Source of the DNA: Escherichia coli
Lineage (GTDB): Bacteria; Pseudomonadota; Gammaproteobacteria; Enterobacterales; Enterobacteriaceae
NCBI RefSeq assembly: GCF_048403405.1
Contig: NZ_CP183131.1
Length of the DNA stretch: 64,000 nucleotides
Strand: one strand, 5' to 3'
Below, piece after piece: positions 51,001-64,000 of the stretch. How positions within the stretch are numbered: position 1 is the stretch's first letter; each line of letters starts with the position of its first letter. A program made the position numbers.

Positions 51001-54000
51001 ATTAATCCATTCAGTGAGTTCTGATGGTGATCGCCCCATGCTGTTCAGGCTGTCCACGGCTTCAAGTTTCTTATCGAATGGGACGTCACGCCAGAAAGCT
51101 GGGCGCGAAGCAGCTCTGAGGAGATAGATCGCCGTAGCCTGAGCATCTTCATTGGATACTTTCAAAAAAACACCTTTACCGTTACATGTCACACCAACTT
51201 CATCGTGACATGTAACACTTCAAACTGCAAGTATAAAAAAAGGCCAGCTATTGCTGGCCTTTACGTTCATTATCGCAGTTACTCTTTAGGCGTTGTGATG
51301 CTTTTTTTCCTTCTGTTTCTCATGGTAGAGATACAGACTGCCGCCAGTGACGACAGTGAAAAAAATGAGCAACCCCAACATGCCTAATGTGAAAGCGTCC
51401 ATTTGACCCCCTTAGGAATTGCTGACCTTGGTTAAGATTATACCATAGATCCACAGGATAACCCCAATGACCAACACCAAACCGGCTTCTTTGACGGTTA
51501 TAGTGTCCCCAGATACAGCCAATCCTACAATACCGACACCGATGGCTGTTACGGCGACCTTACGCAGGTCTTCACCGATAGCTCCCAGAGTCTTCTTGTC
51601 AGGAGAGAAAAGACGCACAAACCACGTCTTAATACGCAAAAACTTTTTCATGATTACCTCCATAGTTGAAGAGGAGGCGAATCATGCCCGAGAGGGCATG
51701 AACACCCCCTCAGGGTTAAAGTTTTAGGCAGACAAAGCTGTTGGCTTCGCCTTGTTCATCTTCATTGAGTTAATGATCTTCGTCGCTTCATCAGCAAACG
51801 GGCCAGTAACTTGGATAGGCTCCCTTCTTGCGAAGGAGGCTGTCACCATCATTCTCTGGCCGTGCATCAGATGACGATACCGAGACCGCATAAGCTCAAC
51901 GTAGGCCGCAGAGTCCCCCTCCCACCCCTCAGGGGGAGAAAAGGGGCACACCGCGTCGTTACCAGGCGTTGTATCAACCTTCGAGACATCAATGACGGCC
52001 ATACTCAGCTCTCCTTCTCGCAATGAAATCGCGCAGGTAGCGAGCATTCGGGAAACCGAGGCTTCCCTGACTCATCAGGACATCGTTCCAGTCAATCCCT
52101 TTCGCTCTGGGCGGGATCGGGAGTTTAGGCAGCAGGACGTACACACGAATGCCGCGCTTCTCCAGCTTGGCTTTCAGCACGTTCGCTGACTTCTCACCAG
52201 TCACAGACTTATCTTTGTCAGCCCAGATCAGTACGGTGTGAACACCTTCTGGAACCTCGAAGGACTCCATCAGGGTCGCATTGACCGTTGACCAAACCGG
52301 GATTTGAGTGACTCGATAAGCTGACAGGGCTGTTTCCAGCCCTTCTGCAACACCCAGGATACCCTCAGTCGGTTCACCGAGGCGGATGGCCGCGCCATTG
52401 ACATCCAAACCGTCAGGAATGGGCATCATCTTCTTGGCGTTGCCGACCTTGGCTTTTTTACCGTTTTGGGTGAGATAGGTGCGGTGGAGCGTTACCAGGT
52501 TGCCTTCCACATCTCGGATAGCGCAGACGATAGCCGGGAATTTCCCAACTTCATTGCCATCTTCGTCGTAGTAGGCCATAGCCGGATTGAACCGCAGACA
52601 GTCTGTTTTTTCTACTTCATCAACCTTGAACAGAAGCTCGCGGTTTTTGAAGTACAGACGCATTGGCTCAGTCACATGACTGGAGAACGGCAAACACTCG
52701 TTCCATACCTTCTCGATTTTCTCACGGAGACGAGCACTGTAAGCGCGTTCGCGCTCCATTCTCTTCTCCATTTCTTCTTGGAGCTCAAGCAGCCAAGGCT
52801 TAGGTTGTTCACGAAACATCGGAACAACTTTCGGCTTGTTTTCGCTGCTTTGCTCTTCCGGTTGTGTGGCCGCATGTTGTACTTGCGGTGCCGGAGCTTC
52901 TACCGTGCGGTTGACCACAGGGGCCGACTCAACATGGTGACTCACCGGCTCAACACCACCGTTCGAGCGAGCGCGGAACTGCGTTACCGTAGCGCCGCGA
53001 CGTTCCACCAGCCAGGTGTTGCGATGCGTTTGCATAGGTTGTTCTCTCACAACATTCCCCTGCTCGTCCTTAACTTCAACGACGACAGTTACAGGCTCGC
53101 GCCCGAGGTTTGTCATGACGATCTCATCCCCATACTTGGCTTCACTTTCACCAATGGCTCTTTCAAGATCCACGCCCCAGATGGTGCGTTCCAAACCGCT
53201 CTTGTCACGGATGAAGGCAAAGTAGCTGAGCTCGTTGTCTTCGTTATGCTCATAAGGAGCTTTACCGTGGGCAATCAGAGTACCGGCAATGGATTTTTTA
53301 CGATTCTTGGAATCGAGAACCTTGTTATTCACCTTCATAGGCTCTTGCTGAACAGGCGCTTTGGCCTGGACAGGAGCTCGTGTCGGTGCAGCGGCTTGTT
53401 GATACTGGGGTTGCTCTTTCTCAACGCCCAGATAATCACCAACCTCGCTCAGGCACTGTTTAAAGTCCCAGTTATTGAGCCACATCAGCAGCTCAAAACC
53501 ATCATGATTGGCACCGCATGTATTGCATACGCCGCCACCAGTCAGGTGGGCATCCTTGAACAGTCGGAAGCCATCTTTCCCGCCGTGGATAGGACAAGAA
53601 ACATGACGACCAGGTTTACGGAGAGCTGGTTCAAGATGGGGCGCTAGGGCCGCCAGGATGAATAGCCAGTTTCCGTTTGCAGCTTCACGAACGGTGTCAG
53701 CTTTGTAGTAAGACATAGGTTTTCTCCTTAGCGTGAACCCCAGCATCGAGGCTTCCTTAAACCCCCGTCGCCAGGGTTTTAAGGAAACCCCGACACCGGG
53801 AGAATGTGCCAAGGAGGCTCCCCAGCCGGGGAGAACTCCCCGGCGAGGGGTTTAAAAAGGTCGCCCCCGAAACGGAGGCGAATTTTGTGAATATCACAAG
53901 CACAAATGAGTGCCATCTTCCGAGGCCATCATGATTGTGACATCTGCGGTTACAGGATCTGACTTAATCACAACCTCAGTGGGTTTGAAAAAGCCATCTA

Positions 54001-63000: not shown

Positions 63001-64000
63001 AGAACCACTGCCAGACTTCCCAGCGCCTGGCTCTGCGAACCTCAAGATTTACAGTGTCTTTAAAACGAACACCCAGAGCATCTACCGCATCGTAATCCAG
63101 CGCGACCGCCAGCTTTGTGATGGATAAATTCCCAGGGTTGCCCATCGCATACCGGAGAACCTTTGCTTTGGTCTCTGGGTTTACGATCATAACCGGCTCC
63201 CTCCTGAAAAAACGGGTCTTGTCTTTTCGCTTGGAATCCATGTTGCGGTTATGGAACCTGGCAATGCAGTGTTGAAGGCCTGAATCCTCGGGAGGTAAAG
63301 GCACAACAGTTTCGATTTTCATGATTACTCTCCTTTCGGATAGGCCGGAGCAAAGGCCTTTCGGCATTGCCCCGGTGAGTTACTAATGAACCAAAGATGA
63401 AGTGACCATGATTGCGTCTCCGGACATCATTACCGGGAGATATTCGCAAGGCTCATGGCCGCAGCTCTTTTTAGTTCCGTTAGGTGAATAGACAGCCAAT
63501 TGACCATCCATAATGTTGAAGGGCATCCCCTGTTTTTTCGCTGCCGGTGACAGCTTGAGAGTGCCCTTTGCGTCAACCAATGCCGTTGCCCAATGGAAGT
63601 CTTCACCACCGATCACCGGCTGTGATTCATCCACGACTTCGACCATGATTGGCATCATTCCAACCCAGCTCCACAGGCTGTTCCCTAATGCGAGGGCTAA
63701 AGCCTCGAACGCGGGAAAGACTACCGATTGCCCGAGAATCTGGTGGGCAATAGTGTCCGACAGACCTTGGATGAGTTCCTCTGGTATCCCTTTCACTCGA
63801 CAATGTTCTGTCGGTGTAAAGATGCGAGACAACTCCGGCTGTTCTGGATGAACAATGAAAGGTTCGGTACTTCTGCATTTTGCATAGTCCTTACCTATGG
63901 TGCCGCAAAACTCATCGTCGCCAGTCAGAAGCTGGCGAGAGAACCCCTTGCCAGCAGCTTTGTCTCTCAACTCCTTCTCAGCCAGATAGTCAAATGACTT

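Follow-up and report, generated by a model that had tools for sequence, protein, structure and literature searches.

Structured leaders recur before the genes of an IncC plasmid array and are predicted to gate translation initiation

Messenger RNAs that hide their own ribosome-binding site (RBS) are familiar from mobile elements: in the hok mRNA of plasmid R1 and in the IS10 transposase mRNA a cis structure covers the RBS, and alternative or metastable pairings time translation. Stem-loops at the 5' end, and 3' stabilizers of the repetitive extragenic palindromic (REP) type, are known to protect mRNAs, while the leading regions of conjugative plasmids carry single-strand promoters of the Frpo type, roughly 300 nucleotides (nt) in length. 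By analogy, the nearest conceptual parallel that we found to the elements described here is the start-associated sequence (SAS), with its extended form (ESAS), of Cluster K mycobacteriophages, an orientation-specific motif found just upstream of many start codons in a non-structural gene array (PMC3203893). SAS is a conserved 13-mer, GGGATAGGAGCCC, which contains the Shine–Dalgarno (SD) sequence and lies 3-7 bp before the start codon; about half of its copies have an upstream inverted repeat, the ESAS repeats are conserved in sequence, and its authors suspected a role in translation initiation while leaving function open (PMC3203893). Here, we characterize a family of structured 5' leaders in a gene array of an IncC plasmid, contained in a 64,000-nt stretch of Escherichia coli DNA (assembly GCF_048403405.1, contig NZ_CP183131.1; 'the window', numbered from its first letter).

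IncC plasmids are major carriers of carbapenemase and multidrug resistance genes, and their accessory block of ~30 kb (ssb, bet/exo, primase, methylase and many hypothetical genes) is poorly understood. The segment at 51.6-63.5 kb of the window is IncC (IncA/C2) conjugative plasmid backbone, 100% identical to many plasmids, and the backbone genes of the array lie on the minus strand throughout. A first-pass annotation had proposed that leaders consisting of TAACCC and a GC-rich hairpin stand between these genes. Both the one-directional array and the leader family are borne out, and were if anything understated: the leaders occupy ~51.7-63.4 kb, as proposed, but the array runs on for ~16 kb past the window end. 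Of 12 intergenic regions inspected in the interval 51.65-63.4 kb, 10 carry YAACCC followed by a GC-rich hairpin, and the other two carry variants. Read on the plus strand, GGGTTA was confirmed at 51713, 54339, 55649, 55661, 56278, 57455, 57721 and 60378; other sites are variants, reading GGGTTT at 53848, GGGATTA at 54587 and GGGTTG at 62087, and the one placed at ~63370 is actually TAACTC at 63385-63380.

The hexamer count by itself was not significant (31 matches in the whole window, 19.9 ± 4.9 expected). A composite pattern, [TCA]A[AGT](A)CCC followed by a hairpin of at least 5 bp and then GG, matched the minus strand of 51001-64000 12 times, as compared with 1.14 ± 1.10 (maximum 4) in 200 dinucleotide-preserving shuffles. 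Ten of these matches are intergenic leaders, and the remaining two, at 57623 within a coding region and at 60691 within an insertion sequence (IS), look like chance. All 12 window leaders examined folded more stably than shuffled sequences (z-scores from -3.4 to -8.9), and z was below -2 in 35 of 35 leaders of IncC and of pAQU1, a Photobacterium plasmid (mean -4.4). These strongly negative scores bear out the proposal that stems vary beside a kept prefix under selection for structure; on the folding models, selection appears to act on the structure of the leaders, not on the sequence of their stems. The sense strand was more stable than the antisense strand in 26 of the 35 (p = 2e-4), as expected if G:U pairs are used.

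Counts from plasmid pVCR94 agree. Every annotated intergenic region at 65-93 kb was read, giving ~24 canonical and 5 variant leaders among ~31 gaps of at least 50 nt; since this count comes from reading annotated gaps, it is independent of our leader detector. Strict detector matches on the complete pVCR94deltaX sequence fell solely within 65.17-92.78 kb, all of them intergenic, with zero in the tra, rep and par regions and the rest of the 120.6-kb plasmid. There are ~27 leader copies per plasmid.

The leaders share one anatomy. The 5' flank is G-poor and T/U-rich and ends in YAACCC, 0-4 nt before the 5' arm of helix P2. The first hairpin, H1, consists of helix P1, whose foot pairs CCC with GGG, and of P2 (5-9 bp), whose 5' arm is always G-rich beside the loop. 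The P2 5' arm ends in GGG, the H1 loop measures 3-14 nt, the P2 3' arm starts with CCC, and 0-3 nt separate it from the GGG of P1. H1 has a mean energy of -18 kcal/mol; its loop has no conserved nucleotides and the orientation of its G:C triplets is fixed. On the 3' side of H1 there follow a strand, L', with a C-tract or CTCC (CUCC), an A/T-rich loop of 7-13 nt, the SD (GGAGG or AGGAG), a spacer that repeats the sequence of the H1 loop, and ATG. CCC and ATG are a median of 64.5 nt apart, and the leaders always end at the start codon.

In most leaders the second half of the minimum-energy fold is a hairpin, H3, in which L' and CUCC pair with the SD, the spacer and AUG. The SD and AUG are paired in the favoured fold of most leaders (~10 of 12 in the window), the probability of an unpaired SD being 0-0.46. 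L' has a second potential partner: in an alternative helix, H2, L' and the C-tract pair with the 3' part of the P2 5' arm (GGG) and with the H1 loop. Both complementarities are specific to the individual leader. In IncC and pAQU1, H2 had -11.4 kcal/mol within a leader and -6.6 between leaders (p = 7e-12), and H3 had -14.2 and -9.2 kcal/mol respectively (p = 1e-13); a control pairing, of the loop with the SD region, showed no difference in the same set. Pairing of the loop alone with L' is weak (-3.5 kcal/mol), so that H2 is an alternative hairpin competing with P2 and not a pseudoknot. An H-type pseudoknot between the H1 loop and L' was rejected on this ground, and also as the complementarity depends on the GGG of the P2 arm.

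Since L' is complementary both to the RBS and to the H1 arm and loop, the leader is predicted to be a two-state RNA, with an OFF state (H1 and H3) that hides the RBS and an ON state (H2) that frees it. When the RBS (SD through AUG) was forced to be single-stranded, the best fold was one long hairpin of the P2 5' arm and loop with L' and the C-tract, with a small CCC:GGG hairpin at its tip. Mean energies were -35.7 kcal/mol for the OFF fold and -28.0 for the best RBS-free fold; exposure of the RBS costs 7.7 kcal/mol, as compared with 14.9 for H3 alone, and the predicted cost for individual leaders spans 1-14 kcal/mol. Swapping H1 for that of another leader raised the exposure cost to 10.1 (p = 1e-15). 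The 5' arm of H1 would thus be a built-in decoy for the anti-SD strand, roughly halving the energy needed to expose the RBS, and SD mimicry would already account for the orientation of the triplets in P2. Of the two computational analyses that the first-pass annotation had suggested, folding strongly supports the structure, whereas MAFFT/RNAalifold alignment yielded only trivial pairs. MAFFT placed the variable stems out of register, and our own structural parser with shuffle and chimera controls was used, without Infernal E-values. The detector accepts only leaders that have CCC and GGG, a perfectly paired P2 and an H3 duplex at -8 kcal/mol or lower.

That the strand behind the hairpin pairs both with the SD and start codon and with the H1 arm and loop points to translation control. 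We therefore favour, with a probability of about 0.6, the reading that the elements are mRNA leaders acting in cis, each gating translation initiation at the gene that follows. H1 would be opened from the conserved, single-stranded, G-poor YAACCC side, and the freed arm would exchange onto L'. Our best guess for the trigger is a 30S subunit with ribosomal protein S1, which would use the G-poor 5' flank as its standby site and from there bring about strand exchange; alternatively, an RNA-binding factor that the element itself encodes would be the trigger. The outcome would be uniformly low, tightly gated translation of accessory and establishment genes (ssb, bet, exo, primase, dcm, yfbR and others) that would be transcribed as long AcaCD-dependent polycistronic RNAs.

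The same hairpins lend themselves to mRNA processing, a role also raised in the first-pass annotation. RNase E would cut in the G-poor, A/U-rich flank, and H1 would then protect the 5' end of the downstream cistron; equally, H1 and H3 would block 3' exonucleases for the upstream cistron and set the half-life of each polycistronic segment. H1 is very stable, starts right after a conserved single-stranded G-poor stretch, and is located between the cistrons of long operons, all of which would suit such a role. However, processing leaves unexplained why L' is complementary to the SD/AUG region and to the H1 arm and loop, and why the leader has a constant end at the start codon. We keep both forms of this explanation as rivals but consider them unlikely; a stability role could also exist alongside translational gating. 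Transcription attenuation, proposed as well, is not supported: no H1 hairpin was called as an intrinsic terminator or attenuator, and there is no T-run directly 3' of H1, where GGG and L' follow instead.

The design extends well beyond IncC. pAQU1 aligns with IncC in yfbR alone (72% nucleotide identity) and has the same leader design, with different stems, before at least 15 of its 27 genes. A wider scan, with one genome per species, used a companion motif, TAGCTGG-N4-8-AAAYAAACAGCA, which belongs to the block-start module described below. It found at least 120 stretches in alpha-, beta- and gammaproteobacterial genomes and metagenome-assembled genomes, of which ~20 are estimated to be chance matches. 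Among the matches listed, most multi-copy stretches were followed within 10-60 nt by a leader of the same design. The parser defined a broad set of at least 242 distinct leaders in at least 71 loci. In the 187 leaders among the matches listed that are unrelated in sequence to those of IncC and pAQU1, both H2 (p = 2e-21) and H3 (p = 2e-36) were again leader-specific, and the control pairing was not significant. Genes behind the leaders elsewhere include ssb, recT/bet, a PD-(D/E)XK exonuclease, toprim primase, an AAA ATPase, DUF3150, radC and dcm. Orthologous genes have leaders of the same architecture that are unrelated in sequence; thus the dcm leaders of IncC and of contig NHHQ01000038 differ, and in each the loop and L' are complementary.

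That contig, NHHQ01000038.1 (43.6 kb), belongs to a metagenome-assembled genome labelled Rhodospirillaceae bacterium TMED167 and encodes proteins 50-86% identical to those of the IncC backbone (TraN, ssb, bet, exo and dcm among them). It is an IncC-like plasmid relative, and its alphaproteobacterial label may therefore be a binning artefact.

The conserved prefix proposed for the leaders holds as TAACCC in IncC and pAQU1, but the TAA is a local habit: among the matches listed, the flank of the broad set reads CAA in 54 leaders and TAA in 46, giving YAACCC for the wider family. This bears on a possible coupling to the upstream gene, in which H1 would be melted by a ribosome that stops at the UAA of UAACCC, leaving the arm free to capture L' and thereby release the SD, by a logic resembling trp-type or IncI repY/repZ coupling. 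The three-helix arrangement would suit such logic. In seven IncC leaders, moreover, the upstream gene really does terminate at the TAA or TAG just before CCC, and one leader has TAA in the window plasmid but TGA, likewise a stop codon, in pVCR94. Against this, CAA is as frequent as TAA in the broad family, and among the matches listed the median distance from stop codon to CCC was 19 nt, with only 20 of 159 leaders that follow open reading frames (ORFs) at 3 nt or less. A further 45 leaders, again among the matches listed, stand behind a non-coding TAGCTGG module and do not differ in flank or in H1 and H3 energies, and masking of the H1 5' arm does not thermodynamically free the SD. It follows that stop-codon coupling is not the general mechanism, and the candidate in which the stop codon is a conserved feature and the terminating ribosome melts H1 is rejected in this general form on flank, distance and module-preceded leaders. 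We regard coupling as very unlikely.

Several points weigh against translational gating, and they are best considered together. All energies are nearest-neighbour predictions. The OFF state is strongly favoured at equilibrium, and the SD stays paired when the H1 5' arm is masked in silico, so that an active or kinetic trigger is needed to reach the ON state. An all-against-all comparison of the proteins of IncC, pAQU1 and the alpha-labelled and betaproteobacterial loci, which are fragments, yielded no candidate RNA-binding factor; the shared proteins were products of DNA-metabolism genes only. bet and exo of the related SXT element are reportedly functional, and at least some genes of the array must be translated. 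Finally, ~10-15% of the broad set look like false positives, and because the detector presets CCC/GGG, P2 and H3, conservation of these features in that set is partly built in. Unbiased support comes from the annotated intergenic regions that were read, from the shuffles and from the same-leader versus cross-leader tests.

The strongly favoured OFF state calls for an activator, and so invites a further alternative: the leaders might be operators at which a trans-acting RNA-binding protein or small RNA from the mobile element reads YAACCC and the invariant H1 G:C triplets and switches all of them at once, making up a post-transcriptional regulon. The fixed orientation of the triplets, the retention of YAACCC across very divergent elements and the dozens of leader copies per element are consistent with this. 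However, the loops lack conserved nucleotides, the orientation of the P2 triplets is already explained by SD mimicry, and IncC, pAQU1 and the betaproteobacterial loci (fragments) share no candidate RNA-binding protein. Such operators seem to us distinctly unlikely.

A second element accompanies the leaders. Each gene block has, ahead of its first leader, a block-start module: a hairpin whose 7-nt loop, TAGCTGG, is invariant, and then C(N)AAACAAACAGCA. The window has minus-strand copies at 54636-54611 and 62124-62099 and a shortened one at 57755-57730, and pVCR94 has copies at 65113, 66155, 70987, 75423, 79822, 83604, 86742 and 89857. The first of these modules (54600-54735) comprises a terminator-like hairpin, a helix beginning CTTTAC, hairpin C and hairpin D (loop TAGCTGG at 54636-54630), and then CAAAAACAAACAGCA to 54611. 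The second (62095-62260) comprises a hairpin, GCGCAGGGGGAAACCCCGCGC, a CTTTCC...GGAAAG helix and the TAGCTGG hairpin (62124-62118), and then CAAAAACAAACAGCA to 62099. The shortened copy lies in the promoter and 5' untranslated region (UTR) of the vcrx114 operon (57730-57843, minus strand), where the TAGCTGG hairpin (57755-57741) is followed by CAAAACAGCAA. Other TAGCTGG copies are preceded by a terminator-like hairpin and a covarying CTTTCC...GGAAAG helix. The module is present in at least 100 proteobacterial contigs.

The 4-bp stem of the TAGCTGG hairpin was paired in 28 of 28 aligned sequences, with 45 cells changed on both sides. Its covariation score of 0.94 compares with 0.215 in shuffles (0 of 500 as high) and with 0.11-0.18 for slid partners, in an alignment that was pre-filtered for pairing; in a subset chosen solely by the leader that follows, all four pairs formed in 22 of 23 distinct cores. 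With its clean covariation and invariant loop, the module is apparently a second undescribed element, and our guess is that it serves as an RNA-level antitermination or factor-loading site. The RfaH ops element has the conserved sequence GGCGGTAGCGTG, of which G5 and T6 are read specifically, and needs a NusG paralogue; no NusG or RfaH homologue was found in pVCR94. In betaproteobacterial TAGCTGG copies GGCGGTAGCTGG presumably resembles an ops site, with which the stem covariation conflicts. An ops-like site was rejected, as the bases flanking the loop covary as a 4-bp stem. The AGCUGG loop on its 4-bp stem resembles, we assume, a tRNA D-arm.

The AcaCD boxes of vcrx114 and vcrx128 map exactly to 57843-57815 and 49906-49878 (minus strand), and the corresponding transcription starts to ~57780-57778 and 49842-49841 (Carraro 2014, Table S3). 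TAGCTGG stands at +29 and +31 from these AcaCD-dependent starts, in the 5' UTR. A shared box, GATAGCTGGTCGCCAAAAACAAACAGCA, was considered as the AcaCD operator and rejected, since it lies at +29/+31 and the published box is ~90 nt upstream (Carraro 2014, Table S3). Only four AcaCD promoters (vcrx087, 098, 114 and 128) are published for pVCR94 65-95 kb (Carraro 2014), in keeping with long polycistronic transcripts. Within 51000-64000 of the window, sigma-70-like sites are fewer than in shuffles: 2, both in or beside the IS, as compared with 9.6 ± 3.2.

The promoter map also bears on the suggestion that the hairpins act in single-stranded DNA during conjugation, as promoters or priming signals on the transferred strand. 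Hairpins can form in single-stranded DNA, and the gene content (ssb, primase, methylase and recombinase) is like that of leading-region establishment genes. However, oriT lies directly upstream of mobI, at position 1 of pVCR94 (120.6 kb), and the leader array is 27-55 kb away, so that it is not a leading region in the usual sense. Moreover, the published transcription starts belong to AcaCD promoters on duplex DNA, the stems are short (~30-nt hairpins) and GC-rich, and no sigma-70-like sites with -35/-10 hexamers are present on the leaders. The sense strand outfolds the antisense strand via G:U pairs, each element is tied to an SD and AUG, and canonical leaders occur on both strands of a Pseudovibrio contig. 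The single-strand promoter role put forward in the first-pass annotation is not borne out by distance or by promoter hexamers, and we consider any role of this kind highly improbable.

Translational gating by the YAACCC leaders could be one part of a larger scheme. In IncC, IncA, pAQU1-type and related proteobacterial conjugative elements, TAGCTGG hairpins with their CA-rich tails might mark transcription blocks through RNA-level antitermination or factor loading, YAACCC leaders might lock the establishment genes, and a dedicated trigger, whether an element-encoded factor or a relay with strand exchange driven by a standby ribosome, might flip them all. We offer such a plasmid-wide post-transcriptional programme tentatively, as a possibility that is on balance doubtful; if true, it would constitute an unrecognized layer of conjugation control above activators of the AcaCD/SetCD/BisDC type. 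The presence of one RNA design before ~27 IncC genes, kept in elements of Alpha-, Beta- and Gammaproteobacteria, implies strong selection for translation gating. It would offer a handle on how costly establishment genes stay quiet or are switched on. Curation of the leaders as a defined RNA family could help to locate true start codons and small ORFs in such elements, and a natural, modular SD-hairpin with a built-in decoy strand is of interest for RNA engineering.

The individual leaders of the window, all on the minus strand, show how far the design varies. The leader of a gene of 79 amino acids (aa) (51649-51718; start codon 51651-51649; TAACCC 51718-51713) consists of H1 and then a hairpin over SD and AUG; it matches the composite pattern, and GGAGG and AUG are paired (minimum free energy, MFE, -35.8 kcal/mol; z -6.3). 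The toprim primase gene has a long variant (53714-53855; start codon 53716-53714), in which TAAACCCC and H1 at ~53854-53820 are followed by GGGGAGCCUCC and a 22-bp hairpin (MFE -89.5 kcal/mol; z -8.9). The same variant (H1, GGGGAGCCUCC and a ~22-bp hairpin) stands before the primase genes of pAQU1 and of betaproteobacterial loci (L082 and L097), and its retention suggests a gene-specific elaboration of the basic design. In the leader of a 128-aa gene (54278-54344; start codon 54280-54278; TAACCC 54344-54339) the loop is UACACUUC, L' is GUAGGUGUACCC and the SD region is GGAGUACACC (MFE -32.9 kcal/mol; z -5.2). The leader at 54531-54593 (start codon 54533-54531; MFE -29.9 kcal/mol; z -5.6) has the variant foot TAATCCC and precedes a 48-aa ORF.

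The leader of a 283-aa gene (55587-55654; start codon 55589-55587; MFE -32.3 kcal/mol; z -3.4) has TAACCCC at 55654-55648, and the second TAACCC beside it, at 55666-55661, serves the upstream gene as its stop codon. That of a 185-aa gene (56219-56283; start codon 56221-56219; TAACCC 56283-56278) has the loop CGCAUCAU, L' UGUGGUGCGUCC and SD region GGAAUGCAC (MFE -30.8 kcal/mol; z -5.2). In the yfbR leader (57392-57460; start codon 57394-57392; TAACCC 57460-57455) the minimum-energy fold is the H2-type alternative hairpin with a short CCUCC:GGAGG hairpin (MFE -33.1 kcal/mol; z -4.4). A 67-aa gene, first in the AcaCD-driven vcrx114 operon, has its leader at 57667-57726 (start codon 57669-57667; TAACCCC 57726-57720; MFE -25.4 kcal/mol; z -3.6), and the 817-aa PAPS-reductase-like gene at 60322-60383 (start codon 60324-60322; TAACCC 60383-60378; MFE -32.7 kcal/mol; z -3.6), with an IS3-family element directly upstream. 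A second 128-aa gene has CAACCC at 62092-62087 (leader 62028-62092; start codon 62030-62028; MFE -30.2 kcal/mol; z -4.4). The two variants without a canonical CCC...GGG foot keep an SD-covering hairpin. One, before a 184-aa gene (62815-62880; start codon 62817-62815), has UUAAC, a 13-bp hairpin and CUCUC:GAGAG over the SD (MFE -27.9 kcal/mol; z -4.7); the other, before a 143-aa gene (63320-63386; start codon 63322-63320), has UAACUC and then a hairpin, with the SD only partly paired (MFE -26.1 kcal/mol; z -3.6).

Besides toprim primase, yfbR and the PAPS-reductase-like gene, the array in the window holds many hypothetical genes; past the window end follow dcm, yfaE, a VWA protein, DUF3150, exo, bet and ssb. 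The IS3-family element (~60.45-61.64 kb) is inserted past the stop codon of the 128-aa gene and ahead of the 817-aa gene's leader; this leader is intact but severed from upstream transcription. In pVCR94 the insertion point is a gap of 87 nt only. The 48-aa ORF (54387-54533, minus strand) is unannotated in pVCR94 and has a full module and leader; its protein is 89% identical to one in the marine contig NHHQ01000038, and it is therefore probably a real gene. An unannotated 30-codon ORF (MEIAIIALCIPTGWAISRPFVRIAESFGYC) likewise stands behind a canonical leader (AAACCC-hairpin...GGAGCAACATCATG) at pVCR94 ~65590-65740, and leaders may help in the discovery of small genes. A unit of ~70-100 nt comprising module and leader is near-identical at pVCR94 66155-66265, 70987-71097 and 89857-89960, as is the leader at 80275 (GTGCGATAGCTGGTCGCCAAAAACAAACAGCAAATTAACGTTAATTTA...AACCGGGCGCATCCGCCCGGTTCGGGACGTGGTGCGCC), and such direct repeats are possible substrates for deletion or gene shuffling.

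Neither element matched Rfam, searched in a permissive E-value mode with IncC, pVCR94 and five distant loci; the output held only chance microRNA and ctRNA matches below gathering score, off the leaders and modules. No description of either was found in the text-searchable literature (queried for the sequences, IncC, pVCR94 and ICEclc), coverage of which is incomplete, so that an earlier description is possible; the paper on the AcaCD regulon does not mention hairpins. By-eye comparison of the leader sequences with REP elements and bacterial interspersed mosaic elements, sigma-54 and sigma-70 promoters and the Chi site gave no fit. Integron attC sites, in which the core sites RYYYAAC ... GTTRRRY flank an imperfect palindrome at the 3' end of a cassette, were also rejected: only one of three plus-strand GTTNNNN sites checked fits GTTRRRY, and the elements are tied to the downstream start codon instead of to the end of the gene before them.

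Among described systems, the leaders are like hok and IS10 in being cis RNAs with alternative pairings, carried by plasmids or transposons, that hide an RBS. Those are single-gene systems triggered by antisense RNA or 3' processing, whereas here a modular design stands before ~27 genes per plasmid. With riboswitch expression platforms and trp-type hairpins the leaders share mutually exclusive helices, L' pairing either with its competitor or with the SD; unlike these, they have neither a conserved aptamer or loop nor a leader peptide, and their output is translation, without a U-tract. The plasmid leaders of IncI-alpha repY/repZ and IncB repBA also have a hairpin loop complementary to sequence beside a sequestered RBS. 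Here, however, the stem arm is used without a pseudoknot, the position of the stop codon is not conserved, and no antisense RNA is evident. Coupling by leader peptide and pseudoknot as in IncI/IncB was rejected on the stop-to-foot distance, the weak loop-alone pairing and the presence of the same leaders without an upstream ORF. Frpo resembles the leaders in linking hairpins with establishment-type genes of conjugative plasmids; the leaders differ in lying away from oriT (65-93 kb of the 120.6-kb pVCR94), in lacking promoter hexamers and in being RBS-tied hairpins of ~30 nt. The likeness to SAS/ESAS is conceptual only, as the SAS 13-mer is absent from the leader sequences; the leader stems vary freely while structure, YAACCC and G/C triplets are kept, and hosts and elements are unrelated. 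Cis RNAs that cover an RBS and have an alternative fold are, as a general kind, well known; what is new is this particular architecture, the way it is repeated before dozens of genes per element, and how widely it occurs.

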